32,000 nucleotides of DNA from Acaryochloris marina MBIC11017. Its GTDB lineage: Bacteria; Cyanobacteriota; Cyanobacteriia; Thermosynechococcales; Thermosynechococcaceae. The position numbers and the translations under genes were made by a program. Position 1 is the stretch's first letter, and each line of letters opens with the position of its first letter. The stretch is taken from assembly GCF_000018105.1 (NCBI RefSeq), contig NC_009925.1, forward strand, positions 4,140,001 through 4,172,000. The letters run 5' to 3'. Positions 3,526 to 28,848 of the stretch are shown piece after piece. Below the pieces are notes generated by a model. The model did not search any database. It was given only the letters and a program-made list of their open reading frames with translations, and was not told the DNA's origin.

Positions 3526-4122
3526 ATGGATGATGCCTCTGAGCAGATTGCAGGTGTTGATGAAGTCGGTCGAGGGGCCTTGTTTGGCCCTGTTGTAGCG
3601 GCTACCGTTATCCTCTCTGATGGGGCCATTGAACAGTTAGTGGCTCAAGGGATGACGGATAGTAAGAAACTATCGCCACAGCGTCGAATGATATTGATGA
3701 ACCAAATCCGAGAGGTGGCAACGGGGTTTAGGGTGGGGATGGCGTCAGTATATGAGATTGATCGCCTCAACATTTTGCAGGCCAGTTTACTGGCCATGCG
3801 GCGGGCTGTGCTGGGTTTACCATCCACTCCTCAGTTATGCTTAGTCGATGGAAACCAACGGATTCCGAATTTACCGGTACCGCAAAGAACGGTCGTTAAA
3901 GGCGATCAATCCGAACCTGAGATCGCAGCTGCAAGCATCCTGGCTAAAGTCTGGCGTGATCAACTGATTGTCCGTTTAGATCAGCGTTACCCGGGGTATG
4001 ATCTAGCATCGAATAAGGGCTATGGCAGTGCTAAACATCGGCAAGCGTTGCGAGAACTAGGACCAACGCGCCAACATCGATTGTCCTTTGCCCCTTGTCA
4101 GGCCAGTTTACTTCCAGATTAA
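3526..4122 (+). CDS. rnhB: Ribonuclease HII
   Basis: GVDEVGRGALFGPVVAA catalytic DE motif, plus DSKKL, ASILAKV and the NKGYGS..H signature. Confidence 0.95.
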   Translation: MDDASEQIAGVDEVGRGALFGPVVAATVILSDGAIEQLVAQGMTDSKKLSPQRRMILMNQIREVATGFRVGMASVYEIDRLNILQASLLAMRRAVLGLPSTPQLCLVDGNQRIPNLPVPQRTVVKGDQSEPEIAAASILAKVWRDQLIVRLDQRYPGYDLASNKGYGSAKHRQALRELGPTRQHRLSFAPCQASLLPD

Positions 4123-4957: not shown

Positions 4958-5812
4958 CTAGGCAGTAATCATGGTTCCAATCCCAGAATCGGTAAAAATT
5001 TCTAGCAGTAGGGCATGGGGGGCGCGACCATCAATAATATGGGCAGCTTGAATCCCTTGGGCTAAAGAGCGAATACAGCAGGTCACCTTTGGAATCATGC
5101 CTCCAGCTACAACCTCTGCTGCTATCAGCTCACGAGCCTGGCGAATATCCAGTTTGTGAATGAGGGATGTTGCGTCTTTATAGTCTTGAAGAATGCCTGG
5201 GGTATCCGTTAGTAGAATGAGTTTCTCAGCATCTAACGCAGCGGCGAGTTCTCCCGCGACGGTATCAGCATTAATGTTATAGACCTGTCCTTCTTCGTCG
5301 GTCGCCACACTGGACACGATGGGAATATGTCCCCCATCGAGCAGGTTATGGATCAGTTGGGGGTTTACTGAGGCCACCTCTCCTACAAACCCAATGCCAG
5401 ATTCTCCCTGGGGACGAGCCGTGAGTAACTTGCCGTCCTTGCCGCAGACGCCAACAGCCGATCCTCCGGCCTGGTTAATTAGGGAAACCAGTTCTTTATT
5501 CACTCGCCCCACCAACACCATCTCAACCACATCCATTGTTGGTGCATCGGTTACTCGCAAACCCTTCATAAACTGAGGCTCAATTCCCAACTTTTCCAGC
5601 CATAGATTAATTTCCGGTCCCCCGCCATGGACGAGGACAGGGCGTAGACCAACACAAGCCATAAACACCACATCCCGAATTACTGTGGCTTTAAGGGTGC
5701 TATCTTTCATGGCCGCCCCACCATATTTAACAACGACTGTGCGTCCAGCGAAGGATTGGATGTAAGGAAGAGCCTCACTTAATACTTGGACGCGATCGCT
5801 AGCGTTAAACAT
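4958..5812 (-). CDS. argB: N-acetylglutamate kinase
   Basis: [19 protein letters not shown] and [14 protein letters not shown] are amino-acid kinase family signatures. The ORF opens at TTG 5827; the first ATG (MFNASD) is at 5812. Confidence 0.93.
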
Positions 5813-6253
5813 GGGGTTGGGTGGCAAACAAAGAGAACAACGCGCAAACCATTGAACAGTAAAGGCTTGCCCATAGACAGCAGTTTAGCTCGTTATGGTA
5901 GGTGACCGTAAGCAGGTCATGCAAGCAAGCCTCATAGCTATGATTGACGCTCTCTGATGATCAGGAGAGGGATATCAACATCCGTCTTTAGTCGAGAACT
6001 TTTCAGGTCGGTTGAACGACTAAAAGGTATCCAGTTACGGCAGACTTCTTTTAGAGAAGAAAATATGATTTCCTCGTCATATCGTGTCAGTTATGGTGAG
6101 GTCATAGGTCTTTTTATGTTCTGAATTTTAATTTCCTTCATATAATCTTTTGAGAAATAATTTATATATTCTCTTAGGTGCTGTAGGCTTTTTAGAAATA
6201 ATTTTCCTGGAATACCTTCTGTGTTTTGACGAGTTAAAGTCATATTTTGTGGG

Positions 6254-6283
6254 TTGCATTACATGGTAATTGATGGTTATAAT
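6254..6283 (+). promoter_or_regulatory. Sigma70-type promoter candidate for cassette 1 (TTGCAT-18 bp-TATAAT)
   Basis: TTGCAT at 6254-6259 and TATAAT at 6278-6283. It sits 17 bp inside the start of the near-identical block and implies a 5' leader of about 390 nt before the A1 ATG. Confidence 0.45.
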
Positions 6284-6677
6284 TAGGTCATTAAAAGTAT
6301 TTTTACTCTAATAAATTTTAAGATAAAACTTATTATCATATCATTATTATTTCTGAAAACAATAAAATATAAGCATCTTTTTTATTCACTTAAGGAATAC
6401 TTAGAGAATCCTGAGAATCTTCTCAGAGTGGTTATTGTAATTACAGTGTTTAGTAGCTGTAGGCCCAATCATTCCTGACTAAATAATCTAGAAAGAAATA
6501 AAGGAGTCATGAGTTTTCTTTGTTTCTTTTGCTTGTTTATCCAATATTTGAAGCGTTGTGATGAACTGCTTCTCAAATATTTGAATGAAACTAAGCAGGA
6601 ATGATTGCCTATTTTGTTGGTGTGCAGCCCCGATTGCTTTGATCTCTAAAAATTTATTCACCTTAGTGAGGTTTAAT

Positions 6678-7127
6678 ATGAAAGCTCAACGCCTTCTACC
6701 CCTTTGCTCTGCTCTTTTCTTGGGTTTAGCTGCTGCTCCTGCCTTTGCAGGTTCTGCTAGTGTTTCCAACAGCTTCTCCATTCGTGATATCAAGAATGGT
6801 TATTCTCACACCAATATTAAAGTGAAAGAATGGTACGGCGGTATTCGTTCTGCTGGAGCCGATGCTAGCAAGGTATCTGTTGGTGTTACCACAACCCAGG
6901 ACGGTAGCACGACTACTCAGACTCAATATTGTGGTTGGGGTTGTAAGAAGTCTACGACTACAAACAACGGCCTATTTTCTGAAACAGATTACTCTGTTGC
7001 CACTTCTTCTAGCTGGTCCAAAGAGTACGGTGCATTCAAAAAAGACACTAACGTTCATGTTCATGAGAGCTATCACTTTGATGGCATCGACAAGACTCAC
7101 ACCGTTGGCTCTAGCTTCAGCTTCTAA
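6678..7127 (+). CDS. Small secreted protein A1 (149 aa, Ser/Thr/Gly-rich, CxxxC, C-terminal ...HTVGSSFSF); unknown family
   Basis: SD gtgagg lies 7 nt upstream of ATG 6678. Sec signal peptide MKAQRLLPLCSALFLGLAAAPAFA|GS. A paralogous copy is at 10214-10663. The 31-codon extension from 6585 in the ORF track has no RBS. Confidence 0.8.
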   Translation: MKAQRLLPLCSALFLGLAAAPAFAGSASVSNSFSIRDIKNGYSHTNIKVKEWYGGIRSAGADASKVSVGVTTTQDGSTTTQTQYCGWGCKKSTTTNNGLFSETDYSVATSSSWSKEYGAFKKDTNVHVHESYHFDGIDKTHTVGSSFSF

Positions 7128-7165
7128 ATCAAGCTAGCTGCTTCATATCTAAGCCAAACAAACAA

Positions 7166-7190
7166 GGGGCAGCAGCTAAGCTGTTGCCCC
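7166..7190 (+). terminator. Strong intercistronic hairpin after gene A1 (attenuator or RNA-stabilising stem)
   Basis: GGGGCAGCAGC-taa-GCTGTTGCCCC is an 11-bp stem with one G-U pair, followed by TTTGCTC (short U-tract). It is conserved identically at 10702-10726. Confidence 0.55.
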
Positions 7191-7215
7191 TTTGCTCAGC
7201 TCAGGAGAATTAATC

Positions 7216-7956
7216 ATGCGTTATCGTCTTGGGCTGTTGAGTACATCGGTTGTGGGAATGTTGACATTGTCATCTGGCTCAGTTTTAGCCCAAACGACAA
7301 ATAACATCACAGTACCTAACAACTCCCAATCAACAGCTAACCCTGAAGTCAGCCTTGATCAGCAGGGCTCATTAGTAAATACTCAGGTCAACAGTACAAC
7401 CTTAGGCCGCAGTGTTGTTGGCAACGGCATAGCAGACTGTACCAGTAATGGTTTAAGCGTGTCAGCCTATGGTAGTGGTGTCGGTCCCTTTGATACCGGT
7501 ACGGTTGGCGGTGCGATTACCTATACCCATTCTTTTGGGATGGATACCTGTAAGCAGTACGCCAAGAATCAATTAGGGAAAGCGAAGCTTGAAACCTGTT
7601 TTTTATTAATCAGTAACTATTCCAAAATGGTTAAAGCAGGTATTGATGTCAGCTATACAGCGCTGATGGAAGTGGCTAATGTTGACTGTCCACCTGTGAC
7701 AGTTCGTCAAGCTGCGATTCCTCAGCCCTCTCCTTCTGCCTCGAATCGTCCAGCATCGACTCCGGTTTCATTGCAAGGGCAGCAACCCGCTCCAACGCCT
7801 ACGGTGCGAGAGTATGGCAATAGTCCACAGAATCCACCTCAAGCGCAGACCCCATCCCCATCGGAGCCACAACTCAAGACAGCATTACCTAACTCAACTT
7901 CAGAGTTGCCTGCTGTTCAAGGGCCTCAACGATTGACGGCTAAAGAGTTGCTTTAA
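7216..7956 (+). CDS. Secreted protein B1 (246 aa; 4-Cys globular part plus Pro/Gln/Ser-rich C-terminal tail); unknown family
   Basis: SD aggag at 7203-7207. Signal peptide MRYRLGLLSTSVVGMLTLSSGSVLA|QT. The tail reads PQPSPSASNRPASTPVSLQGQQPAPTPT..PQNPPQAQTPSPSEPQ. Copy at 10752-11492. Confidence 0.8.
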   Translation: MRYRLGLLSTSVVGMLTLSSGSVLAQTTNNITVPNNSQSTANPEVSLDQQGSLVNTQVNSTTLGRSVVGNGIADCTSNGLSVSAYGSGVGPFDTGTVGGAITYTHSFGMDTCKQYAKNQLGKAKLETCFLLISNYSKMVKAGIDVSYTALMEVANVDCPPVTVRQAAIPQPSPSASNRPASTPVSLQGQQPAPTPTVREYGNSPQNPPQAQTPSPSEPQLKTALPNSTSELPAVQGPQRLTAKELL

Positions 7957-8175
7957 TGTCGATTCAGGGGATAACACTGTGTGTTGCCTACTTTGATTCT
8001 CTGTTGCGACCTAATCAGACCAAAAAGCATTGCTGTGAATTTCTGGCTTGATAGTATTTCCAGCGCTAAAGAAAGACTTTTATAGTCTGTGATTAAGCCA
8101 GCCACATATGACTGACTTCAGCTCCCAGGATTGAAATGTCTCGGACAGGCACCCCGAATAAGGAGGGCATGATTG

Positions 8176-8553
8176 ATGCAACTGAAACTAACACTTTATG
8201 GTGCTGTGGCCTATGCCGTTTTCAGTACATCACCTTGCTATGCCCAGATAGTGCATGTGATGACGTTTCAGAACTCGTCGGGTGGACGCCATATTAGAGA
8301 AATTACTGGCCAACAAACCCAGGATGATCAGTCCATTGGTGTTTCTCTCAATACGTCTGATGAGCGTACAACAACCCGTTCTTCGTCCACAGTGAATGGT
8401 GTAACCCAAGAGCAAACCTATACCTATATCAACTCAGCTAAGAGTCAGGCAGTAGAAACGGGGCATCGCAGAAGAATTGAACATACTCGGCTTTTTGAAG
8501 CGTATGACTATTCGGACTACGCTGTTGACCACACTGTCGATTTTAGTTTTTAA
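8176..8553 (+). CDS. Small secreted protein C1 (125 aa, C-terminal ...VDHTVDFSF), distant paralogue of A
   Basis: SD aggagg at 8161-8166. Signal peptide MQLKLTLYGAVAYAVFSTSPCYA|QI. It shares collinear motifs with A (IREI/IRDI, IGVS..TTT, E.Y.[YF]...HTV..FSF). Copy at 11753-12130. Confidence 0.8.
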   Translation: MQLKLTLYGAVAYAVFSTSPCYAQIVHVMTFQNSSGGRHIREITGQQTQDDQSIGVSLNTSDERTTTRSSSTVNGVTQEQTYTYINSAKSQAVETGHRRRIEHTRLFEAYDYSDYAVDHTVDFSF

Positions 8554-8707
8554 GTGCTAGTTGACTGCCTGGATACCCAATAGTCTCTACATCTATGGCG
8601 ATTCAGTGTGCTGACCTCAGCGAGCTGCTAGGGAAGATCACTCTTCTAACCCTTCAGTGTTTTCTGAAAACCCTACTCCAGGACAGTTGTTGCTAGGAGA
8701 TTTAACG

Positions 8708-8998
8708 ATGAAATCTACGATATTTTTAACGACAGTTATCACAGGGTTGAGTATTCTACCTGCCCAGGCTCAGACTCAGTCTTTCTTTGGGGTGCCCATT
8801 GGTCAAGATGTGCCAGTGATCGTCTTTTCCCCGGTGACTCAGTACTATCCGAACTATTATCCGGGACCTGGTTTTTACCAATATAGTCACTATTTTCGAA
8901 GCACAGAACACCATTTAGACTTTGATAAATATGACTACCTGCTCAGTGACGACTTGGTATACAACTTTCCCGTAGTCGGCAATTTTAATTACAAGTAA
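8708..8998 (+). CDS. Small secreted Tyr/Pro/Phe-rich protein D1 (96 aa); unknown family
   Basis: SD aggag at 8693-8697. Signal peptide MKSTIFLTTVITGLSILPAQA|QT. Aromatic low-complexity stretch YYPNYYPGPGFYQYSHYF. Copy at 12313-12603. Confidence 0.75.
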   Translation: MKSTIFLTTVITGLSILPAQAQTQSFFGVPIGQDVPVIVFSPVTQYYPNYYPGPGFYQYSHYFRSTEHHLDFDKYDYLLSDDLVYNFPVVGNFNYK

Positions 8999-9154
8999 TT
9001 CTGAAACGGCTGTAGATTTATGGTATCCGCCAATCCCTTGTATTCAGCGATTGCAGGTAGTGAGGGTTGGATGGCCTCAGTCTTCTTATAAATAGATGCT
9101 TTAAGAAAGTGGGCGGCAGCCTAAAAGTTTTCAGTTATTCTAAGCATTATGACT

Positions 9155-9185
9155 AGCGCTCGTTATTGCGAGCGCTTTTTGCTTT
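9155..9185 (+). terminator. Rho-independent terminator closing cassette 1
   Basis: agcgctcg-ttattg-cgagcgct is a perfect 8-bp GC-rich stem followed by tttttgcttt, about 155 bp after the D1 stop. Confidence 0.75.
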
Positions 9186-9789
9186 CAATTTTTTAAGAAA
9201 ACCATTTGACTTGCAGAATCATAAGGAACGATAGCCTCAATAGTTGCTGTATCTCAACAGTGCAAGATATTTCTGGTGACGTAACGATCGCGCTTATTTC
9301 TCGATCACGATCAGTAATTGATATGGAGCTACTGCGCTTTCTGCCCATAATAGTGTTAGATAGGTTGGTCACCCTGTAGATCAAGCACTTTACGATGCCT
9401 CAGTAGGTGCAGATCATGGGCGACGTTGTGTGTGGTTCAATTTTTATGGCTCGGCCTAATTTTCACTTTTCAAGTTTATGCAGCTAGATGTGATTGTTAT
9501 TGAAGAAGGTTCATTGACGCTTCACTAGAATGAACTTTTTAGATAGCTTGAACGACTAGAAAGGTATCAAGTGATGATCAATAATTTTTAGAGGCTAAAA
9601 TAAAATTATCTCGTCAGATTGTGTCAGTTATAGTGGGTCTCTAGGTCTTTTTGTGCTCTCTATTTTAATTTTCTTCATGCAATCTTTTCGTCAACAATCA
9701 ATGCCTTCTCTTTGTGTTGTAGGTATTTCAGGAGTTGTGAGCCTGAGATAACTCATGTATTTTATTGATTGAAAGTCATATTTTGTGGG

Positions 9790-9819
9790 TTGCATTACAT
9801 GGTAATTGATGGTTATAAT
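9790..9819 (+). promoter_or_regulatory. Sigma70-type promoter candidate for cassette 2 (identical to 6254-6283)
   Basis: TTGCAT at 9790-9795, 18-bp spacer, TATAAT at 9814-9819. Confidence 0.45.
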
Positions 9820-10213
9820 TAGGTCATTAAAAGTATTTTTACTCTAATAAATTTTAAGATAAAACTTGTTATCATATCATTATTATCTCTGAAAACAATA
9901 AAATATAAGCATCTTTTTTATTTACTTAAGGAATACTTAGAGAATCCTGAGAATCTTCTCAGAGTGGTTATTGTAATTACAGTGTTTAGTAGCTGTAGGC
10001 CCAATCATTCCTGACTAAACAATCTAGAAAGAAATAAAGGAGTCATGAGTTTTCTTTGTTTCTTTTGCTTGTTTATCCAATATTTGAAGCGTTGTGATGA
10101 ACTGCTTCTCAAATATTTGAATGAAACTAAGCAGGAATGATTGCCTATTTTGTCGGTGTGCAGCCCCGATTGCTTTGATCTCTAAAAATTTATTCACTTT
10201 AGTGAGGTTTAAT

Positions 10214-10663
10214 ATGAAAGCTCAACGCCTTCTACCCCTTTGCTCTGCACTTTTCTTAGGTTTAGCTGCTGCTCCTGCCTTTGCAGGATCTGCTAGTGTT
10301 TCCAACAGCTTCTCCATTCGTGATATCAAGAATGGTTATTCTCACACCAGTATTAATGTTAATGAGTGGTACGGCGGTTATCGTTCTGCTGGAGCTGATG
10401 CCAGCAAGGTATCTGTTGGCGTTACCACTACTAAAGACGGTAGTGCTACGACTCAAACTAAGTACTGTGGACGCAATTGCCGTAAGTCCACAACAACTTA
10501 CAACGGCCTGTTTTCTGAAACAGATTACTCTGTTGCCAAGTCTTCTAGCTGGTCAAGAGAATCCGGTTTATTTACAAAAGACACCAACGTTCATGTCTAT
10601 GAGAGCTATGACTTTGATGGCATCGACAAGACTCACACCGTTGGCTCTAGCTTCAGCTTCTAA
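10214..10663 (+). CDS. Small secreted protein A2 (149 aa), divergent allele-like paralogue of A1
   Basis: Same RBS, signal peptide and C-terminus as A1. There are 18 amino-acid replacements, all between residues 46 and 133. Confidence 0.8.
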   Translation: MKAQRLLPLCSALFLGLAAAPAFAGSASVSNSFSIRDIKNGYSHTSINVNEWYGGYRSAGADASKVSVGVTTTKDGSATTQTKYCGRNCRKSTTTYNGLFSETDYSVAKSSSWSRESGLFTKDTNVHVYESYDFDGIDKTHTVGSSFSF

Positions 10664-10701
10664 ATCAAGCTAGCTGCTTCATATCTAAGCCAAACAAACA
10701 A

Positions 10702-10726
10702 GGGGCAGCAGCTAAGCTGTTGCCCC
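10702..10726 (+). terminator. Intercistronic hairpin after gene A2
   Basis: Identical to 7166-7190. Confidence 0.55.
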
Positions 10727-10751
10727 TTTGCTCAGCTCAGGAGAATCAATC

Positions 10752-11492
10752 ATGCGTTATCGTCTTGGGCTGTTGAGTACATCGGTTGTGGGAATGTTGA
10801 CATTGTCATCAGGCTCAGTTTTAGCCCAAACGACAAATAGCATCACAGTACCTAACAACTCCCAATCAACAGCTAACCCTGAAGTCAATCTTGATCAGCA
10901 GGGCTCATTAGTAAATACTCAGGTCAACAGTACAACCTTAGGCCGCAGTGTTGTTGGCAACGGCATAGCAGACTGTACCAGTAATGGTTTAAGCGTGTCA
11001 GCCTATGGTAGTGGTGTCGGTCCCTTTGATACCGGTACGGTTGGAGGTGCGATTACCTATACCCATTCTTTTGGGATGGATACCTGTAAGCAGTACGCCA
11101 AGAATCAATTAGGGAAAGCGAAGCTTGAAACCTGTTTTCTGTTAATCAGTAACTATTCCAAAATGGTTAAAGCAGGTATTGATGTCAGCTATACAGCACT
11201 GATGGAAGTGGCTAATGTTGACTGTCCGCCTGTAACGGTTCGTCAAGCTGCGATTCCTCAGCCCTCTCCTTCTGCCTCGAATCGTCCGGTATCGCCTCCG
11301 GTTTCATTACAGGGGCAGCAACCTGCTCCAACGCCTACGGTGCGAGAGTATGGCAATAGTCCACAGAATCCACCTCAAGCGCAGACCCCATCTCCAGTAG
11401 AACCGCAACTCAAGACAGCATTACCTAACTCAACTTCGGAGTTGCCTGCTGTTCAAGGGCCTCAACGGTTGACGGCTAAAGAGTTGCTTTGA
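10752..11492 (+). CDS. Secreted protein B2 (246 aa)
   Basis: About 96.5% nt identity to B1 by manual alignment, with 5 aa replacements. Same RBS and signal peptide. Confidence 0.8.
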   Translation: MRYRLGLLSTSVVGMLTLSSGSVLAQTTNSITVPNNSQSTANPEVNLDQQGSLVNTQVNSTTLGRSVVGNGIADCTSNGLSVSAYGSGVGPFDTGTVGGAITYTHSFGMDTCKQYAKNQLGKAKLETCFLLISNYSKMVKAGIDVSYTALMEVANVDCPPVTVRQAAIPQPSPSASNRPVSPPVSLQGQQPAPTPTVREYGNSPQNPPQAQTPSPVEPQLKTALPNSTSELPAVQGPQRLTAKELL

Positions 11493-11752
11493 TGTCGATT
11501 CAGGGGATAACACTGTGTGTTGCCTACTTATTCTCGGAGGATGTCGCTCAGTAATCTTGCACTTGTATAGATCAGGCGAAAGTGATTTCGACCTAGATGC
11601 ATTCCTGTTGATGCTTGAATTATGTCCATAACTCCAACGTGATCTCTAGTTTGGGGTAAAGAGCTGCAAGCAGGATTGACTTCAGCTTAGTTGCAGTGCC
11701 AGGACTATTACGACGCTATGTGAGTTTATTAGGATTTTGGAGGGCACAAGTA

Positions 11753-12130
11753 ATGCAGATGAAGCCAATACTTTATGGTGCTGTGGCCTATGCCGTTTTC
11801 AGTACATCACCCTGCTATGCCCAGATAGTGCACGTGATGACGTTTCAGAACTCATCGGGTGGACGCCATATTAGAGAAATTACAGGTCAACAAACCCAGG
11901 ATGATCAGTCCATTGGTGTTTCTCTCAATACGTCGGATGAGCGTACAACAACCCGCTCTTCGTCCACAGTGAATGGTGTGACCCAAGAGCAAACCTATAC
12001 ATACATTAACTCAGCTAAGAGTCAGGCAGTTGAAACGGGGCATCGCAGAAGAATTGAACGTACTCGGCTTTTTGAAGCGTATGACTATTCGGACTACGCT
12101 GTTGACCACACTGTCGATTTTAGTTTTTAA
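11753..12130 (+). CDS. Small secreted protein C2 (125 aa)
   Basis: SD ggaggg sits 8 nt upstream of ATG 11753. After the first 6 codons there are 13 nt differences from C1, 12 of them synonymous. Confidence 0.8.
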   Translation: MQMKPILYGAVAYAVFSTSPCYAQIVHVMTFQNSSGGRHIREITGQQTQDDQSIGVSLNTSDERTTTRSSSTVNGVTQEQTYTYINSAKSQAVETGHRRRIERTRLFEAYDYSDYAVDHTVDFSF

Positions 12131-12312
12131 GTTTGCATAGTGTATGCCCCAACAAGGATTGAGCAGATTGTCTATACACCAACAGGTGGTTGATCTTGCA
12201 GCCACTTGTGAGAGTGCTCACTGTGTTGAGCAGTTATGGGAAATCACTGTTCTGACCTATCGATCTTGTCTTGAAAAGTACTCCAAGGCAGTTGTTGCTA
12301 GGAGATTTAACG

Positions 12313-12603
12313 ATGAAATCTACGATATTTTTAACGACAGTTATCACAGGGTTGAGTATTCTACCTGCCCAGGCTCAGACTCAGTCTTTCTTTGGGGTGC
12401 CCATTGGTCAAGATGTGCCAGTGATCGTCTTTTCCCCTGTAACTCAGTACTATCCGAACTATTATCCGGGACCTGGTTTTTACCAATATAGTCACTATTT
12501 TCGAAGCACAGAACACCATTTAGATTTTGATAGATATGACTACCTGCTTAGCGACGACTTGGTATACAACTTTCCGGTAGTCGGCAATTTTAATTACAAG
12601 TAA
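12313..12603 (+). CDS. Small secreted Tyr/Pro/Phe-rich protein D2 (96 aa)
   Basis: 7 nt differences from D1 and one replacement (K to R). Same RBS. Confidence 0.75.
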   Translation: MKSTIFLTTVITGLSILPAQAQTQSFFGVPIGQDVPVIVFSPVTQYYPNYYPGPGFYQYSHYFRSTEHHLDFDRYDYLLSDDLVYNFPVVGNFNYK

Positions 12604-12840
12604 TTCTGAAACGGTCATCAATGCATTCTGCTCATCAACAATTGGGCAATAGTGTATGTAGTGATTGAAGACGATGGAGTTAGCCTTTTTCAGCTTGATC
12701 CATTCAAGGGAAGTAGTATTGAGTGCTGCTCCTCGGCAGAGCAATGCAGTCAAGCAATCGTTAAACTGAAGAGATGAATGTCATCTTGTTTAAGGTGATT
12801 TCATTGTTTTTGATTGTGACGACGCAAGGATCATACGCAT

Positions 12841-13497
12841 ATGAAAGCATTTGTGGCTGGAGCAACGGGTCAAACGGGTCGCCGCATTGTGTCTCAATTA
12901 GTTGAGCGGGGTATTCCCGTGCGAGCTTTGGTTCGAGATATGGATAGAGCAAAAGCACTCTTACCGGAAGCTGCTGAGTTAGTGGTGGGCGATGTATTGG
13001 ATGCGAGTTCGTTGGAGGATGCGATCGCAGATTGTAACGTCCTCCTTTGCGCCACCGGAGCGGCTCCTGGCTTTAATCCGTTTGCACCCCTACAAATTGA
13101 TTATCTGGGGACCAAAAACTTAGTAGATGTGGCCAAAGCTAAAAACATTGAGCATTTTGTTTTGGTGTCTTCCCTGTGTACATCGAAGCTGCTGCATCCC
13201 CTGAATCTGTTCTTCTTGGTATTGGTTTGGAAGAAGCAGGCCGAACAATATATTCAAAATAGCGGGCTCACCTATACCATCGTCCGTCCCGGCGGCCTGA
13301 AGAACGAGGATAATGATAATTCCGTCGTCATGTCTGCCCCCGATACTTTATTTGAAGGCAGCATTCCCCGGACCAAAGTGGCTGAAGTTTGTATTGAAGC
13401 CCTGACGGCTGCATCCTCTCACAATAAGATTGTTGAAATCGTTGCCCCGTCTGAAGCGTTAGACCGACCAATCCCTGACTTATTTGCTAGTGTTTAA
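12841..13497 (+). CDS. NAD(P)H-binding atypical SDR / NmrA-like protein
   Basis: N-terminal Rossmann motif MKAFVAGATGQTGRRIV. VSSL and RPGGL segments are typical of NAD(P)-binding (NAD_binding_10-type) proteins. Confidence 0.8.
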   Translation: MKAFVAGATGQTGRRIVSQLVERGIPVRALVRDMDRAKALLPEAAELVVGDVLDASSLEDAIADCNVLLCATGAAPGFNPFAPLQIDYLGTKNLVDVAKAKNIEHFVLVSSLCTSKLLHPLNLFFLVLVWKKQAEQYIQNSGLTYTIVRPGGLKNEDNDNSVVMSAPDTLFEGSIPRTKVAEVCIEALTAASSHNKIVEIVAPSEALDRPIPDLFASV

Positions 13498-13606: not shown

Positions 13607-14344
13607 TTGGCGTCTAGTTCATCCTCCAAACAGGCTAAACCGATCCATCGTATGGCTTGGCGTTTGGGTGTGTCGTTGACCTTGCTTCTAGGCTTGGGAG
13701 CGTTGTTTGTGCTGCCCAAGTTTGACCCCAAGAGTTTAACTTGGCCCACCACAGAGCCGGGTAGAATTGCCCCACTAGCCATGTCTGGGGGCAATCCCTA
13801 TCTTCGAGCTTTAATGCGGACGATTTCGGCCAGTGAATCGAATGATGCTAGCCCCTACACCGTGCTTTATGGCGGTAGCCATATCGAAAATTTGCAGGAG
13901 CACCCCGATCGCTGTATTCCCATTCGATGGGGACCCAATCAAGGGCTATGCACGACGGCGGCTGGGCGTTATCAGTTTATTACGACTACCTGGTTAGAAA
14001 CTGCAGAGAAGTATCATCCTGCTCCGACGGGAGAATGGATGTGGCGACGCTATAGTTTTGCCCCAGAATACCAGGATCGAGTGGTCTATGCTTGGTTAGA
14101 TGACGTCAATTATTGGGGAACAGATATTCCCCAACTCCTAGAAGATGGCCAGCTCCAAACGGTTCTTAAACGGCTTTCGGGAACGTGGACCAGTTTGGGC
14201 TATGGCATTGAGAGTAATAAGGTGACGCCCCACTTAATGCATATCTATGAACGCATGCTTGCGGAAGAAATTGCCTTAGCCAATGGGTTACCCACCAACT
14301 ATTTACCCACGGTGGCTAACCAATCCGTGGAAACGACGCGCTAG
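13607..14344 (+). CDS. GH104 (phage-lambda-lysozyme-like) lytic transglycosylase with N-terminal membrane anchor or signal
   Basis: SASESN (catalytic Glu region) and TTAAGRYQFITTTW resemble the lambda R AGRYQ signature. Hydrophobic WRLGVSLTLLLGLGALFVL near the N-terminus. TTG start at 13607, alternative ATG at 13652. Confidence 0.7.
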   Translation: MASSSSSKQAKPIHRMAWRLGVSLTLLLGLGALFVLPKFDPKSLTWPTTEPGRIAPLAMSGGNPYLRALMRTISASESNDASPYTVLYGGSHIENLQEHPDRCIPIRWGPNQGLCTTAAGRYQFITTTWLETAEKYHPAPTGEWMWRRYSFAPEYQDRVVYAWLDDVNYWGTDIPQLLEDGQLQTVLKRLSGTWTSLGYGIESNKVTPHLMHIYERMLAEEIALANGLPTNYLPTVANQSVETTR

Positions 14345-17403: not shown

Positions 17404-19776
17404 ATGGCCACGAGATCGCTAGCAGCAACCCCAAAAGGCATCGAAATAATTGAAAGAGCCTTGATGGATAAGCAATGGGGGTGTGATGATCTCAAGAAGC
17501 AGTGTGATTGTAGCCGCCAGCCTGCTGTTAAGTTCTGTGCAGGCAAAAACGTCGATAGAAAGCTTTTTGTTGGTTTTTGCAAAGTATTAGAGCTGGACTG
17601 GGAAGAAATTTCAGGTATTAAGACTGCTTCAGAAGTAGCTGAAACGACTCAGGTTGCAACTGATATAAATACGCTTGTCCAAAAGATTCGTCAGAAAGTA
17701 AAAGCTGATATTCACCATCGCTGTGGCACGATGCGGGTGCTGGATATGGAGCAGCCGATTGGACTGGGTGAAATTTATACTCGCGTCAATATTCTTGAGA
17801 AACTATCTGGAAGGCAGCGTTTAAGGGTTGATGAGCTATGGCAAGATTGCAATATTGATAACTTTGATCGGTGGCTGCTAGGACAGGTGCGTGTCAAACG
17901 AGTACCGGGATTAGAAGCGGTTGAACGTTATAACAAGCTGCTGATTTTAGGTAAGCCTGGAGCGGGTAAAACCACTTTTATGAAGCGGTTAGCAACCCAA
18001 TGCAATCAGGGAAAGTTTGAAGCTTACCGAATTCCTGTGTTTGTCACCCTGAAAGAATTTGCTGAAGCGCCAGGTAAACCCGATTTGCAAAGCTATATTT
18101 TCCAGCAATGGGGAACTTGTGAAATTGAGGAAAATGCTCTTGGCCAGGTTCTAAAAACTGGTCATGTTCTGATTTTATTGGATGGTCTAGATGAAGTTCA
18201 GGCTACGGATCATGATCGGGTTTTGAATTCAATTAAGACATTTACTGAACAGTTTCGCGACTGCCAGTTTGTGATGACTTGTCGGATTGCCGCTCGCGAA
18301 TATACATTTGAGCAGTTTACGGAAGTGGAAGTTGCTGATTTTAACGAAGAGCAAATAGAAGACTTTGCTACCAAGTGGTTTAGAACTAAGCAAGATCCTG
18401 AAAAGGGTGAAAATTTCATCAAACGCTTGCAGGAAAATAAGCCAATTCAAGAGCTAGCAACTAATCCTTTATTGCTGACATTGCTGTGTTTGGTATTCGG
18501 TGAGGCCAATGATTTTCCCCATAATCGTTCAGAGCTTTATAAGGAAGGGCTAGATGTTCTGCTGAAAAAATGGGATGGCAAACGCAATATTGAACGCGAT
18601 CAGGTTTACAAAAAACTGTCCTTGCAGCGTAAAGAAGATCTGTTGAGTCAATTGGCTTATCAAACCTTTGAGCAAGGAGACTACTTTTTTAAACAACGAG
18701 TCATTGAAACTAAAATCATTGACTATATCCGTAATTTGCCAGGTGCTAATGAAGATGAAGAAGCGCTTCAACTGGATAGCGAAGCTGTGCTCAAGTCAAT
18801 TGAAGCCCAGCATGGCCTGCTAGTGGAAAGGGCTAGGGGGATTTATTCCTTCTCACACTTAACTTTTCAAGAATATTTCACGGCTAAACAAATTACTTGT
18901 CCTACTTCTCAACTTCCTAAAGCCCTAGAAAATCTCGCAAAACATTGTTTGGAAAAACGTTATCGAGAGGTCTTTTTTCTTGTTGTAGGAATGTTGCCTG
19001 AAGCCGATGATTTTTTCAGACTGCTCAAAATCCAGATTGATCGATTAATCGCTGATGAACCTAATTTACAAGAGTTTTTGGTTTGGGGTTCTGGAAAAGC
19101 TCAATCAGTTAATGCTGACTATAAATCAGAAGCAATCCGGGCTTACTACCTCTACCTCGCCCTCGCCCGCGCCCGCGCCCGCGCCCGCGACCTCAACCTT
19201 GACCGCGCCCTCGCCCGCGCCCGCGCCCTCAACCTCGCCCTCGCCCGCGCCCGCGCCCTCGCCCGCGACCTCGACCTCGCCCTCGACCTCGCCCTCAATC
19301 TTGACCGCGCCCTCGCCCGCGCCCTCGACCTCGCCCGCGACCTCAACCTCGCCCGCGACCTCAACCTCTACCTCGCCCTCGACCTCACCCTCGACCTCTA
19401 CCTCGCCCTCGACCACGCCCTCGACCAACTAACCAAAATTGAGTCAAAAGGAAAAGATGATCCCGAAATTCTTATTAAATTAAGAGCATTACAATCTCAA
19501 CTCCCTGATTTACAGGACATTCAAGCTTTCAGCAGTTGGTGGAAAGATATGGGAGAATCTTGGATCAAAAATTTGCGCCAAGTCATGATTGACCATCGCA
19601 ATATTGGTCATTATTGGCAATTCACCCCAGCCCAAACGGAAAAACTGCAGCAGTATTTTGAGACCAATCAATTATTGGTTGATTGCCTCAATAGCGATTG
19701 CTACGTCACCAAGGCCACTCGCGAGGAGATCCTGTCAACTTTGCTATTACCGATAAGTGAACTGGAGAAGCAGTAG
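17404..19776 (+). CDS. NACHT-family STAND NTPase with N-terminal HTH-like module, C-terminal dipeptide-repeat array and conserved tail
   Basis: Walker A LILGKPGAGKTTFMKRL, Walker B VLILLDGLDEV, and NACHT-typical FVMTCRI, NPLLLTLLC and HLTFQEYF. The N-terminal approx 65 aa (SLAATPKGIEIIERAL..CSRQPAVKFCAG..VDRKLFVGFCKVLELDWEEI) resembles the module found at the N-terminus of many cyanobacterial NACHT/WD40 proteins. Confidence 0.9.
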   Translation: MATRSLAATPKGIEIIERALMDKQWGCDDLKKQCDCSRQPAVKFCAGKNVDRKLFVGFCKVLELDWEEISGIKTASEVAETTQVATDINTLVQKIRQKVKADIHHRCGTMRVLDMEQPIGLGEIYTRVNILEKLSGRQRLRVDELWQDCNIDNFDRWLLGQVRVKRVPGLEAVERYNKLLILGKPGAGKTTFMKRLATQCNQGKFEAYRIPVFVTLKEFAEAPGKPDLQSYIFQQWGTCEIEENALGQVLKTGHVLILLDGLDEVQATDHDRVLNSIKTFTEQFRDCQFVMTCRIAAREYTFEQFTEVEVADFNEEQIEDFATKWFRTKQDPEKGENFIKRLQENKPIQELATNPLLLTLLCLVFGEANDFPHNRSELYKEGLDVLLKKWDGKRNIERDQVYKKLSLQRKEDLLSQLAYQTFEQGDYFFKQRVIETKIIDYIRNLPGANEDEEALQLDSEAVLKSIEAQHGLLVERARGIYSFSHLTFQEYFTAKQITCPTSQLPKALENLAKHCLEKRYREVFFLVVGMLPEADDFFRLLKIQIDRLIADEPNLQEFLVWGSGKAQSVNADYKSEAIRAYYLYLALARARARARDLNLDRALARARALNLALARARALARDLDLALDLALNLDRALARALDLARDLNLARDLNLYLALDLTLDLYLALDHALDQLTKIESKGKDDPEILIKLRALQSQLPDLQDIQAFSSWWKDMGESWIKNLRQVMIDHRNIGHYWQFTPAQTEKLQQYFETNQLLVDCLNSDCYVTKATREEILSTLLLPISELEKQ
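19147..19425 (+). repeat. In-frame hexanucleotide microsatellite-like array (about 46 units, consensus RMC-CKC) inside the NACHT gene
   Basis: Units are GCCCGC, GCCCTC, GACCTC, AACCTC, GACCGC and TACCTC. They encode YLYLALARARARARDLNLDRALARARALNL...LALDHALD. The stretch is visibly GC-rich (about 70-75%) and has no stops in several frames on both strands. Confidence 0.95.
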
Positions 19777-24309: not shown

Positions 24310-26478
24310 CTACTGGGCCTGCTCTTGCATTAGCTGTTGGATTTGGGGGTTGTAGAGCCTGAGATAATTCCAATAGTTCTCAGAGACGGATTTGACATAG
24401 TTTTTCGTCTCTGGGAAGGGGATCTCTTCGACAAAGACATCGACATCCGTCACCGAAGTCTGTTTAACCCACCGATCTACATTACCAGGGCCAGCATTAT
24501 AGCTTGCGATCGCAAGCATGGAATTGTCGTTATAGTTGCGGTGGGTATAGTCCAGGTACCAGGTGCCGAGATTGATATTGTCGTCAATGCCGTCGATTTG
24601 ATAGTCTTTGAGACCTGCTTTTTCACTCACCCATTCAGCGGTTTCTGGCAGCACCTGCATCAGCCCTACGGCTCCCGCGACGGAGCGAATTTTGGGCTGA
24701 AACCGTGATTCCTGACGCATCAGGCTTAACACCAGAAACGGATTCAGATTGCGCTGGTTGGACCATTTGCGAATGGGGGTGAAGTAGGCCAAGGGAAATA
24801 GGGCCTGTTCAAACCCCGGATGGTCTTGCCACTGTTCGACTAGCTTTTCGGGATCGTTTTCCTCCCGTGCCCGCATTTCCAGATTGGCCAGCATATAAAT
24901 GCCGTCTAGGTATTCCTGAACCCCGAGGCGCAATAAGCCATCCGTGAGCTGTTCCGATAAGCTAGGCTGCTGGCGATTGCGAAACTCCCATTGCCAGCGT
25001 GCCCAGGCCGTTTTGCTTTGTCCGAGCTGGTATAGCTCTTTCAGAGCTGGGGATCCGGCGGCCAAAGGCAGTTGCGTACTGGGAAACCGAATTTGGGGTT
25101 GGAAGGAACGGATGGACGTAAAATCGCCAACGTTCCAGCCCGATAGTACAGCCGCTCGCCAGGCATAGTAGGAATCAGGATAGGTTTGCCAGAGGGTTTG
25201 AAAGGCTGCTTGCCGCTCTTCTGCCGTGGAGGCCCATTTCCCGGCCCAGAACACGGCAGTTGCGGCCTGGGGGCTATTGGGGTTTTGCTTTTGGATTTCC
25301 AGGGCCAACTTGCGGGCACCAGCCAGATTCCCTGCCTTTCGCTGCTGCTCTGCCTGCTGCCATCGCAGAGTCGCTGCATCGTTTGAATCGGAAAACTGTT
25401 GCAGCAACGTTTTCTCAAAGGTGGAAGATAGCTGTTTGGCCTTCTTTAACCGCTGAATTCGCTCCCCGAGGATTTGGGCAGCTAAGGTGGGCTGCTGGTC
25501 TTTACTTAGTTGAAAGGCGCGGTCATAGTGCTGGGCTGCTTTGCCCAAGTCTGGTTCTAGACTGGCGAGCTTGCTCAAGGCCAGGGGCGTTTCTTTGGCC
25601 TGAGGATAGGCCGCGATCATTTTTTGATAGGCAGCCCTCGCTTGTTTCTTTTCTCCCCCGAGCTGCAAGCCCCGTGCACCTCGATAAGCCGTTTGGGACG
25701 TCTGGGGGGCTTGGGCATAGGCCAGTGCCCCCTCCTTATACAGTTGTTTTTCCCAGTATCCAAAGGCGATAATTTGCCAATCAGCAGGTTTGAGCTGGCC
25801 TTTGAATTCCTTCGTCAGCTGGGTTAAGTAATCTCCATAATTGGTTAAAAATAAACCATGCTCTGCAATGAGCATCAGTAGCGGTAACTGCTTGGGCTTT
25901 TTCTTTAACTGCTCTACAGCAATCTTCACCGTCTTAGGATGGGCGGGGAAATCGGCGATAGCTTGCTGCCAGAGTTCAGGCTTTTGCTGGCCGAGTACAA
26001 ATAAAGCTTCTGCTGCAGCGGGTTCTTGGGGATAGTCGGCAATAATGCGCTGCCAGGTCTTGGTGGCTTGCTCTGTCTGCCCCGCTAGGGTTTGGGCCTC
26101 AGCCTGGAGAACGGCGATATGGCTCCCTAATAGAGGGTAACGCGCTTCCAGCCCCTCTAACCACTGCAGGGCTTCTGCCCCTTGGCCCAGGTTAATGAGG
26201 TCCGCAGTTAACACATACCGGGCCTGATTCTGTTCTTGGGCAGTGCCCTGCTGGGCCAGCTGTTTAAGAGGCTCTATCCGCTGTTGGGCAGGGAGAGGCC
26301 GTAATGCCACTAGGGCAGAATTGACGGTTGAAACCTGTAGCGATGGTAAGGGCTGATCCGTGGATTCCAGCTTCGGTTTCAGAAATAGCCAGGCTAACCC
26401 TAATACGAGGGCACTGCTGAGTCCCATGGAGATGATCCAGGGGGCTAAGCGCTTCAAAAAATTGGGAGAACTGCCCAT
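24310..26478 (-). CDS. Soluble lytic murein transglycosylase (Slt70-like: signal anchor, helical repeat U-domain, C-terminal SLT domain)
   Basis: SLT catalytic motif LMRQESRFQPKIRSVAGAVGLMQVLPETA and AIASYNAGPGNV. Long Ala/Gln/Leu-rich helical (TPR-like) N-terminal region and an N-terminal hydrophobic segment. Confidence 0.9.
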   Translation of the reverse strand: MGSSPNFLKRLAPWIISMGLSSALVLGLAWLFLKPKLESTDQPLPSLQVSTVNSALVALRPLPAQQRIEPLKQLAQQGTAQEQNQARYVLTADLINLGQGAEALQWLEGLEARYPLLGSHIAVLQAEAQTLAGQTEQATKTWQRIIADYPQEPAAAEALFVLGQQKPELWQQAIADFPAHPKTVKIAVEQLKKKPKQLPLLMLIAEHGLFLTNYGDYLTQLTKEFKGQLKPADWQIIAFGYWEKQLYKEGALAYAQAPQTSQTAYRGARGLQLGGEKKQARAAYQKMIAAYPQAKETPLALSKLASLEPDLGKAAQHYDRAFQLSKDQQPTLAAQILGERIQRLKKAKQLSSTFEKTLLQQFSDSNDAATLRWQQAEQQRKAGNLAGARKLALEIQKQNPNSPQAATAVFWAGKWASTAEERQAAFQTLWQTYPDSYYAWRAAVLSGWNVGDFTSIRSFQPQIRFPSTQLPLAAGSPALKELYQLGQSKTAWARWQWEFRNRQQPSLSEQLTDGLLRLGVQEYLDGIYMLANLEMRAREENDPEKLVEQWQDHPGFEQALFPLAYFTPIRKWSNQRNLNPFLVLSLMRQESRFQPKIRSVAGAVGLMQVLPETAEWVSEKAGLKDYQIDGIDDNINLGTWYLDYTHRNYNDNSMLAIASYNAGPGNVDRWVKQTSVTDVDVFVEEIPFPETKNYVKSVSENYWNYLRLYNPQIQQLMQEQAQ
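24502..24517. repeat. HIP1 (GCGATCGC) highly iterated palindrome, extended copy gcttGCGATCGCaagc
   Basis: Other exact GCGATCGC copies are at 5792-5799, 13021-13028, 21191-21198 and 27334-27341. This is a cyanobacterial genome hallmark. Confidence 0.85.
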
Positions 26479-27588: not shown

Positions 27589-27936
27589 GTCTTTTTTATG
27601 CAAATCACCCGTTTATGACCAACTGTTTAATTCAATGTTGAGATACCCTTGCAGTCAAAACATTACTGGTCATAGCTCCTGGAGTCAAAGTTCTTTGGCA
27701 CAAGAGATCGCTTTTTACCTAAATCAGGGAAAACTAGGTATAGGGATGATTTCAGAGTTTTAGCTTTATTCTGTCGGCGAAAAATTTCAATCATACCCAT
27801 CTGTTCCCTTAACTCAACGACGGCTTCAGATTGTCAAGGACTCGGTTGAATACCGGGAATGGACCTGTTTGCGCCATTTCATCAGCTTATTCGTCCTCTC
27901 TCTGCAAGAATTCCCCCCTAGGAGCAATTAGTGATC

Positions 27937-28848
27937 ATGCGGCGCCATCAAGACAAAATTAGAGTGGGTGAAGTCCTACTGCAAAAAGGGCTAATCAGTT
28001 CAGCCCAATTGCGTGATGCGTTAGCCACTCAACGAACCAGCCATCAAAGACTGGGCGAAATTCTGGTTCAGCAGGGAGTGGTTACTCCCAAGCAAGTCCG
28101 CCAAGCTCTAAATGAGCAACGTTGGCGCAATGTGATTGCCACCTGCGTGTTAACCGCTAGTACGCTGCTCCCTAGCTTGCCCAAAGTCATGGCTCAACTA
28201 CCAGAAGTGACCGATCAGCGTCGCCACAAGGAGCCGCTATTTTCCCATAATGATATTGGCGGTGGAGAACCCGCCACAGGTGGCTCTCGGTTTACCCCTT
28301 CATCCTCCGAAATTTACTATCCAGCCTTTGTGGATGCACCATTGGCTAAGCAAGCTTCCGTAGACTCCCCCCTCAAAGGATTTTGTCATCCCCTGAATGG
28401 TCAGGGTTGGTTGAGTCAGGGGATTCGGGGCAGAACCCACCGAGGCCGGATGGAATATGCCTATGATTTAGCCACCAGTATCGGCACCCCGGTCTATGCC
28501 ATGCGGGCGGGGAAGGTGATTGCCGTTCAGGATAAATACCCCGATACCGGGGGCGGCAAGGAAAATATTTCTCGCTTCAATTATGTTTGGATTGAGCATG
28601 ATGAAGGGTATCGCTCGGTCTATGTGCATCTGCAGCAAGGCTTCCGCAGCAAAGTCTCCATCAAGTCAGGGGACCGTGTGAAGGCAGGACAGCTGATTGG
28701 CTATAGCGGTAATTCCGGCTGGAGTACGGGACCGCACCTCCATGTCGAAGTGCAGAAGCCCCATAAGAAACGTAAGTTTACAAAAACAGTCCCCTTTAAG
28801 ATTGCAGGGGCTTGTAATACTAGCCCCCTCGCTCGAACGGCCCAATAG
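27937..28848 (+). CDS. M23-family metallopeptidase with N-terminal MshEN (T2SSE_N-type, c-di-GMP-binding) domain and one TM segment
   Basis: N-terminus: RVGEVLLQKGLISSAQLRDALATQ-RTSHQ-RLGEILVQQGVVTPKQVRQALNEQ. TM segment WRNVIATCVLTASTLLPSLP. M23 motifs H..D, IGTPVYAMRAGKV and GNSGWSTGPHLHVEV. Confidence 0.85.
   Translation: MRRHQDKIRVGEVLLQKGLISSAQLRDALATQRTSHQRLGEILVQQGVVTPKQVRQALNEQRWRNVIATCVLTASTLLPSLPKVMAQLPEVTDQRRHKEPLFSHNDIGGGEPATGGSRFTPSSSEIYYPAFVDAPLAKQASVDSPLKGFCHPLNGQGWLSQGIRGRTHRGRMEYAYDLATSIGTPVYAMRAGKVIAVQDKYPDTGGGKENISRFNYVWIEHDEGYRSVYVHLQQGFRSKVSIKSGDRVKAGQLIGYSGNSGWSTGPHLHVEVQKPHKKRKFTKTVPFKIAGACNTSPLARTAQ

Follow-up and report, generated by a model that had tools for sequence, protein, structure and literature searches.

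Two tandem copies of a four-gene cassette, A-B-C-D, lie in the 32,000-nucleotide stretch of the Acaryochloris marina MBIC11017 genome analysed here (NC_009925.1, positions 4,140,001 to 4,172,000, forward strand; "the window," numbered from its first letter), and encode small proteins with signal peptides that form a new family set by every sequence and structure comparison made. We propose, with a probability of about 0.4, that each unit is transcribed independently and forms a self-contained, Sec-dependent assembly module of the envelope or surface, in which A would be the abundant subunit. Among the observations for this reading are that A-B-C(-D) travels as a unit and that the A-B core persists in distant lineages. 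The combination of a variable, multi-copy A with conserved termini, a near-invariant and presumably scarcer B, a minor C and a lack of enzyme, transporter or ATPase domains would fit structural subunits of the cell surface, and since the core A-B pair is also found in soil bacteria and cyanophages, the module probably builds a cell-envelope structure that has not been described before.

Self-BLASTN places the units at 5996-9009 and 9532-12614 and resolves the repeat into three collinear direct-repeat blocks: 5996-8001 against 9532-11535 (92.1% over 2009 nt, offset 3536), 8162-8555 against 11739-12132 (94.4%), and 8622-9009 against 12228-12614 (93.6%), with spacer indels pushing the offset from 3536 to 3577 and then to 3605. 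Each unit holds four plus-strand open reading frames (ORFs), A (149 aa), B (246 aa), C (125 aa) and D (96 aa), which reproduces the layout and lengths given in a first-pass annotation made from the sequence alone. An exact-sequence look-up identifies the eight products as ABW29091-ABW29098, every one annotated as hypothetical; the locus tags AM1_4110, AM1_4112 and AM1_4116 were read directly, and the series AM1_4110-4117 was deduced from the consecutive accessions. The cassette is flanked by an AA_kinase gene (argB) and a NAD_binding_10/NmrA gene, in agreement with the argB and short-chain dehydrogenase/reductase neighbours named earlier.

All four proteins have N-termini of the n/h/c type, with cleavage-site residues that are conserved in the family alignments, as expected from the signal peptides assigned to them in the first pass, and are predicted to be exported. 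In A, the signal peptide ends in ...AFA before a glycine, and the mature protein has conserved strands at both termini with a variable, Ser/Thr-rich centre between them. The first mature residue (the Gly after AxA) and a V-x-N motif are invariant in the family, and the last 34 residues are fixed in length, ending H-x-V-x-S-G-[FY]-x-[FY]; the centre can have anywhere from 33 to 72 residues, with a mean pairwise identity of 23% there versus 47% at both ends. The family is fast-evolving, and mature A can be as short as ~81 aa. The CxxxC of A had been thought to be conserved, but in A1 (CGWGC) it forms the hairpin tip, inside the hypervariable insert, and it varies across the family. C is a genuine paralogue of A (BLASTP E 2e-4; hhalign 98.2%, E 3e-14), as had been suspected. 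D is a conserved Tyr/Phe/Pro-rich protein whose relatives likewise end in an aromatic residue; we rejected it as a third A/C paralogue, hhalign pairing only the signal peptides.

B is the most conserved component: a word-indexed search found 48 proteins, all cyanobacterial, and 47 positions are invariant in 17 diverse sequences. The protein consists of a signal peptide, a very conserved domain of ~135 aa with two helices, and a Pro/Gln/Ser-rich tail that varies in sequence and length. The invariant positions include C75, C112, C128 and C158, which are presumably disulfide-bonded, plus a Gly-rich amphipathic hairpin (GLSVSAYGSGVGPFDTGTVGGAITYTHSFG) of ~2 x 10 residues bracketed by Cys75 and Cys112. 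Several distant B-like proteins (P0047, P0048, P0086 and P0087) share a C-terminal R-[GA]-L-W-COOH after a Pro-rich linker, which may be a docking peptide; it is missing from the B proteins of the window, which end ...AKELL.

The module is conserved as a gene order rather than as a locus. Scanning genomes with a B profile and looking up contigs yielded 19 loci. Wherever the flank is long enough, one to three tandem copies of A precede B, and in most of these loci C comes next after B. D-like genes lie 3' of C in Acaryochloris, L002, L006 and L011-L014, and at three loci (L008, 7305-7892; L009, 2498-3079; L010, 7235-7789) a tail-less second B paralogue of ~190 aa replaces D after C. Carriers of A(1-3)-B-C(-D) include Acaryochloris, metagenome-assembled genomes (MAGs) of Thermosynechococcaceae, Altericista, Lyngbya confervoides and others, and the flanking genes are wholly different from genus to genus. 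The same order among unrelated flanks shows the module to be self-contained, which the first-pass annotation had supposed from this one locus. Likewise, its assignment of A as major subunit is backed by the tandem A copies, by the stem-loop that follows A (see below), and by the conserved termini around a hypervariable centre.

Beyond this clade, B is rare. A hidden Markov model of the B domain, run against 1.84 billion cluster representatives, returned only 21 proteins at E <= 1e-3, and a metagenome scan with a narrowed alignment returned two loci. The distant B-like proteins retain the four Cys, the hairpin and a QRQLDT helix and are homologous to B (hhalign 99.6%, E 1e-23); like the proteins of the window, they received no assignment from Pfam and NCBIfam. 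An Eremiobacteraeota MAG carries an A-like gene (119 aa), B (219 aa) and a 121-aa gene in that order, one Thermosynechococcaceae genome has an additional diverged A-B pair, and soil-type metagenome contigs have an A-like gene (138 aa) followed by B (320-333 aa), and in one case by another B and then an SLT lytic transglycosylase. In all, an A-like secreted gene lies directly 5' of a four-Cys B-like gene in both units of the window and in L001-L019, L020, L022, L024, L027-L033, L035 and L036.

Phages carry the pair as well, and the B-domain search already led to several phage contigs with it. A scan of viral contigs gave seven loci, and in 7/7 a gene for an A-like secreted protein rich in Ser/Thr/Gly stands immediately 5' of the B-like gene; one of these loci adjoins the gp45 sliding clamp, a marker of T4-like phage. 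The phage A-like proteins have an A-like N-terminus and end ...E-S-[FY]-x-F-S-G...ELSTFSR, and the A family matches them in hhalign (92%, E 6e-7). Among cultured phages, Synechococcus phage S-CAM7 (Kyanoviridae, NC_031927) has the pair: its gp026/gp027, both annotated as hypothetical, are true distant homologues of A-B in the same order and adjacency. The PHROG assignments are 28091 for the A-like and 1755 and 848 for the B-like phage proteins, with function unannotated in all three; A-D of the window had no direct match to PHROGs 28091, 1755 and 848. By sequence comparison, the only true relatives of the module are uncharacterised proteins, these three PHROGs included. The phage versions have neither C nor D and usually no long Pro-rich tail. 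Because the pair is kept in phages and beyond the cyanobacteria, A-B is the conserved core and C and D are cyanobacterial additions.

Secreted peptidoglycan-lytic enzymes occur near the module in three independent contexts. At L021 and L032, both phage loci, A-B comes immediately before an endolysin-like gene and a further small secreted protein; in L035, A-B is upstream of an SLT transglycosylase gene; and in the window, a gene at 13607-14344 (+), 1 kb 3' of the cassette, encodes a 245-aa exported protein without a Pfam match but with a weak, specific likeness to lambda lysozyme, a GH104 lytic transglycosylase (PDB 3d3d, 1am7; E 0.009). Structures that cross the cell wall often have such enzymes as neighbours. 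A lysozyme-like gene as a universal part of the module was rejected, since it is syntenic only within Acaryochloris (MAGs), and most cellular loci have no lytic enzyme close by and no phage genes.

The cassette also has conserved non-coding parts (Table 1). Among all four copies of two strains, MBIC11017 and Acaryochloris sp. CCMEE 5410, the leader is 97.7-99.6% identical (98.9-99.6% for the unit 1 leader against CCMEE 5410), and it remains 83-87% identical in Acaryochloris MAGs where mature A falls to about 50-70%. RNA from 6400-6690 folds with z = -5.0 and contains a 16-bp stem and a 45-nt hairpin at ~6541-6585; compensatory changes are few and the covariation support is thin (6 sequences). 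Direct reading also finds a perfect TATAAT at 6278-6283. The block at 6241-6677 is probably a promoter with a long structured 5' untranslated region (UTR), or else a candidate regulatory RNA. A 31-aa upstream ORF at 6509-6604 (+) (MSFLCFFCLFIQYLKRCDELLLKYLNETKQE), preceded by a good AAGGAG site, was rejected as a gene: it is frameshifted in L004 and L005 and so probably encodes no conserved peptide. An Rfam search of 5700-13000 gave a lone sub-threshold miRNA model on the leader hairpin, which was also rejected.

The hairpin described earlier between A and B was located precisely in both units. In most related loci, a GC-rich stem-loop, commonly GGGGC...GCCCC followed by U residues, lies 3' of the A genes, with arms that covary between genera (GGGGCAGC/GCTGCCCC, GGGGTAGT/ACTACCCC and GGGGCAAC/GTTGCCCC); this comparison rests on per-sequence folds, as MAFFT/RNAalifold misaligned the 5' arms. 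The ribosome-binding site for B, a conserved CAGGAGAA, comes after the stem-loop. We propose that the element is an attenuator or stabilises the mRNA; by limiting read-through or stabilising the A transcript, it would cause B, C and D to be made in smaller amounts, and it is from the stem-loop and the gene order that we infer a lower level for the near-invariant B. The terminator noted at the end of unit 1 was found, and nothing comparable to it was found 3' of D2, again as first described.

Table 1. Features of the two cassette units in the window
Feature	Position	Strand	Description
Unit 1 leader	6241-6677	+	437-nt AT-rich non-coding block
A1 (AM1_4110, 149 aa)	6678-7127	+	proposed abundant structural subunit
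A1-B1 stem-loop	7164-7192	+	GC-rich 13-bp stem, AAGGGGCAGCAGC-TAA-GCTGTTGCCCCTT, z = -3.3
B1 (AM1_4111, 246 aa)	7216-7956	+	conserved ~135-aa domain, then Pro/Gln/Ser-rich tail
C1 (AM1_4112, 125 aa)	8176-8553	+	secreted A paralogue, proposed minor subunit
D1 (AM1_4113, 96 aa)	8708-8998	+	secreted Tyr/Pro/Phe-rich accessory protein
Hairpin closing unit 1	9155-9185	+	intrinsic-terminator-like; 9-bp stem, 6 GC pairs, T-rich tail
Unit 2 leader	9777-10213	+	paralogue of 6241-6677
A2 (AM1_4114, 149 aa)	10214-10663	+	second A isoform, 18 aa differ from A1
A2-B2 stem-loop	10700-10728	+	copy of 7164-7192
B2 (AM1_4115, 246 aa)	10752-11492	+	
C2 (AM1_4116, 125 aa)	11753-12130	+	
D2 (AM1_4117, 96 aa)	12313-12603	+	

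The duplication is old and its history is a mosaic. In global alignments, unit 1 and unit 2 are 98.5-98.9% identical in the leader, 88.0% in A, 98.9% in the A-B spacer, 96.5% in B, 95.2% in C and 97.6% in D, with diverged blocks in the B-C spacer (48%), the C-D spacer (54%) and the distal upstream region 5996-6240 (71%); the block-wise pattern of the first-pass annotation stands for the leader, A, B, D and the spacers, and the value for C is corrected from 96.4%. The same tandem duplication is present in CCMEE 5410 (locus L003), again between argB and a NAD-binding gene, and in a third complete genome (BDM78041-48). Between MBIC11017 and CCMEE 5410, orthologous units are 98.7-100% identical per gene for unit 1 and 96.5-97.6% for unit 2, compared with 88-97.6% for paralogues. 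Orthologous units being closer than paralogous ones, the duplication is older than the split of the strains and not the assembly artefact that the first pass had allowed for; its suggestion of an old duplication kept by selection or gene conversion agrees with the purifying selection and patchy homogenisation seen here.

Purifying selection acts on every gene of the cassette (dN/dS 0.19 in A, 0.10 in B, 0.08 in C and 0.04 in D). Most of the extra divergence of A lies at synonymous sites (dS 0.46 for the mature protein versus 0.10-0.18 in B, C and D); diversifying selection on A was rejected for this and for its dN/dS, and the pattern points to a mosaic history, in which the flanks and B-D were homogenised and two distinct A isoforms were retained. 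A1 and A2 are each retained in three strains, and both occur unchanged in other strains. In the BDM78041-BDM78048 genome, the two B copies are identical, as are the two D copies, and A1 and A2 are still distinct and identical to the MBIC11017 versions; this speaks for gene conversion that is still under way and passes A by. MBIC11017 and CCMEE 5410 share 99.2% identity over unit 1 with its non-coding spacers (6241-8998 against L003 9026-11783), and the flanking genes range from 83 to 96.5% (argB 83%, trmD 93%, Tex 94.6%). A near-identical unit between diverged flanks suggests recent recombinational exchange between the strains, or exceptional constraint.

Family and structure searches placed A-D in no well-characterised family, as the first pass had anticipated. 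Pfam and NCBIfam scans of A-D at E <= 1 gave nothing apart from low-complexity noise, and no enzyme, transporter or regulator domain; PADLOC models had no match to A-D or to the phage A and B proteins; and the A and B family profiles had no real match among PDB sequences, a mercuric reductase (E 0.045) being discarded as a chance Gly-rich match. AlphaFold2 models built on family alignments (20 sequences for B, 33 for A) reached a pLDDT of 50-55. The B model (pLDDT 50) is confident only in the helices 109-140 and 147-154, leaving the highly conserved residues 27-108 unmodelled, and gave no Foldseek match. The A model (pLDDT 55) is one very long beta-hairpin (17-60 and 66-110) with short terminal strands, for which Foldseek returned only the pore-stem hairpins of lysenin, aerolysin and anthrax PA at TM ~0.2, a likeness of geometry and not of homology. 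Poor monomer models of the well-conserved A and B would fit proteins that fold on assembly. Literature searches, by locus tag and for cyanobacterial amyloid or surface operons, found no mention of the cassette in the papers covered.

How such a module might work can be outlined as follows. Transcription would start in the conserved AT-rich leader and yield a long structured 5' UTR; A would be translated in excess, with the stem-loop after it limiting read-through or stabilising an A-only transcript; and Sec would export all four proteins, their signal peptides being cleaved. A would be the bulk subunit, its N-terminal strand (G-x-x-x-V-x-N-S...) and C-terminal hairpin (E-S-Y-x-F-x-G...H-x-V-x-S-G-F-x-F) forming the interface between subunits and its length-variable, Ser/Thr-rich central hairpin facing outwards. 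C may be a minor subunit, acting as nucleator, adaptor or cap, and D an accessory protein rich in Tyr. B, with its amphipathic hairpin, its Pro-rich spacer and its probable disulfides, is the obvious candidate for an envelope-anchored factor for assembly or anchoring. The predicted product is a beta-rich assembly, oligomeric or polymeric, on the surface of the cell, curli-, Fap- or pilus-like by analogy and built from unrelated parts. We hold a wider version of the proposal slightly more tentatively: A-B might be the core of an unrecognised Sec-dependent, ATP-independent envelope-assembly system, unrelated to curli, Fap, pili and known channels and shared by some cyanobacteria, Eremiobacteraeota-like soil bacteria and T4-like cyanophages, with which cells, using C and D in addition, would build a variable surface structure and phages, with a minimal version, would remodel the surface of the infected host.

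Several points weigh against the assembly module. Any fibre or oligomer is conjecture, as is the fibre, matrix, adhesin or amyloid-like nature put forward in the first-pass annotation: no internal repeat or solenoid signature of the kind known from CsgA or FapC was seen in the A family alignments, and AlphaFold2 gave only a low-confidence long hairpin with fold matches of hairpin geometry alone (TM ~0.2). The cassette has no recognisable outer-membrane conduit, and a channel role for B would be speculation. The lytic-enzyme neighbourhood is not universal, and our literature searches turned up no transcript or protein data for the cassette. The phage A-B pairs suggest a function needed during infection, which is not obviously that of a fibre. 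Finally, a Sec signal peptide may in cyanobacteria also send a protein to the thylakoid lumen, away from the predicted location at the surface.

Of the other explanations, an outer-membrane hetero-oligomeric beta-barrel or channel is the one we take most seriously, although we consider it unlikely. Here the strands of A, C and D would be inserted by BAM via a C-terminal aromatic motif, with B adding its hairpin, and phages would encode the A-B core to alter the permeability of the host outer membrane during infection. The last residue is indeed F or Y in all cyanobacterial A and C, and D terminates in Y or YK; the A1 terminus, GSSFSF, fits the classical G-x-x-aromatic-x-aromatic beta-signal; B has its conserved amphipathic hairpin between Cys75 and Cys112; the modelled A hairpin looks like the stems of oligomeric beta-barrel pores; and phages carry the pair. 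The terminal aromatic is not family-wide, however, as phage and soil A-like proteins end ...STFSR, ...STFANP or ...TNFQ, and Acaryochloris B also lacks it. A column-wise search of the A and C alignments for a hydrophobic belt found none: the long A strands have no face that is hydrophobic throughout, and the conserved alternate positions include E, R and K. Mature A shrinks to ~81 aa, and a stoichiometric pore predicts neither tandem amplification of A nor an attenuator stem-loop. The same hairpin resemblance, together with multiple variable A copies that recall bacteriocin gene arrays, could be taken to mean that A variants are secreted beta-hairpin pore-forming toxins or bacteriocin-like peptides with B-D as helpers. 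This we regard as very improbable, given a TM of ~0.2 from a low-confidence model, the lack of a receptor-binding or cap domain, of an immunity gene, of a dedicated exporter and of a double-glycine leader, and a hairpin without the amphipathic pattern of membrane-inserting stems.

The phage loci also allow another reading, in which A-B would modify or perturb the cell wall or outer membrane, as an envelope-remodelling device linked to phage biology or to the lysis of peptidoglycan. It might serve, for example, to exclude superinfection, to mask receptors, to disrupt the outer membrane at lysis or to release vesicles, and the chromosomal cassettes would be domesticated versions of it. A-B pairs in T4-like cyanophages (L027-L033, S-CAM7 gp026/gp027) and the endolysin-like, SLT and lambda-lysozyme-like neighbours described above speak for it; it is nonetheless doubtful, and rather more so than the channel. 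Both A and B have cleavable-looking AxA sites and no lipobox or N-terminal membrane anchor of the kind found in spanins, PADLOC gave no match, and most cellular loci are free of lytic enzymes and phage genes. Strong purifying selection, the long regulatory leader, the additional C and D and the multi-copy A look instead like a housekeeping structural system. That there is no functional system at all, only chance ORFs or an artefact of assembly, has nothing but the lacking annotation in its favour and can practically be dismissed in view of the independent assemblies with the duplication (MBIC11017, CCMEE 5410 and the third complete genome), dN/dS of 0.04-0.19, the synteny across genera and the 47 invariant positions in 17 B sequences.

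Compared with known systems, the proposed assembly module would work most like the nucleation-type fibre systems curli (csgBAC/csgDEFG, nucleation-precipitation pathway) and Fap (fapABCDEF). Curli and the cassette both consist of small Sec-exported proteins without an ATPase, with extra small accessory proteins and a major subunit with a paralogous minor one (CsgA/CsgB versus A/C), and the sizes are close (CsgA 151 aa and A 149 aa; CsgG 277 aa and B 246 aa). Pfam and NCBIfam at E <= 1, however, found no Curlin repeats (Curlin_rpt) in A and C and no match to CsgG, CsgE or CsgF among B, C and D, and B, unlike CsgG, is no lipoprotein, having no lipobox Cys at its cleavage site. With Fap, the cassette shares a Sec-dependent operon, paralogous major and minor subunits (FapC/FapB) and Thr/Ser/Asn/Gln-rich sequences; the four ORFs per unit gave no profile match for FapC/FapB repeats, the FapF barrel or the FapD C39 peptidase. 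The likeness to chaperone-usher and type IV pili and to flagellins is one of design logic only: the gene for the major subunit stands first, with a stem-loop behind it that gives subunit excess, subunit termini are conserved around a hypervariable exposed centre, and major-subunit genes are duplicated and diversified. The cassette differs in having no chaperone, usher, prepilin motif, secretin or ATPase, and no PapD-like chaperone or usher ORFs were found in 5996-12618 or flanking the module in related loci.

Other comparisons gave less. For TasA/camelysin (Peptidase_M73/TasA fold, SipW), there was no Pfam match and no PDB match with the family profile. The beta-barrel pore toxins (lysenin 5ec5, aerolysin, anthrax PA) share a long two-stranded hairpin with the A model and differ in everything else, with TM about 0.1-0.3, identity of 6-15%, no cap or receptor domains and a low-confidence query. 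Cellular and phage A and B have neither the lipobox nor a predicted coiled coil of spanins. By direct reading, the C-termini of A-D lack the PEP motif, transmembrane helix and basic tail of PEP-CTERM proteins; an exosortase gene (EpsH family) is present at 28949-30472 (+), ~16 kb downstream, with no apparent link to the cassette.

If the proposal is right, four small exported proteins would suffice for a new class of self-assembling bacterial surface machinery, which would bear on the biology of cyanobacterial biofilms and aggregation, on the engineering of protein materials, and on phage-host interactions, as marine T4-like cyanophages carry the core pair as unexplained auxiliary genes. B also offers a handle on genomic dark matter, being rare (21 cluster representatives in 1.84 billion) yet almost invariant in its clade. 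Even if the idea of a fibre fails, a testable two-gene unit is defined, for which AM1_4110-4117 and S-CAM7 gp026/gp027 offer a clear genetic system.

Elsewhere in the window, an SLT-TPR transglycosylase gene lies at 24310-26478 (-) and an M23 peptidase gene at 27931-28848, and a NACHT/STAND NTPase gene at 17404-19776 (+) contains ~45 tandem CCTCGC hexamers (19155-19423) that encode a dipeptide repeat.

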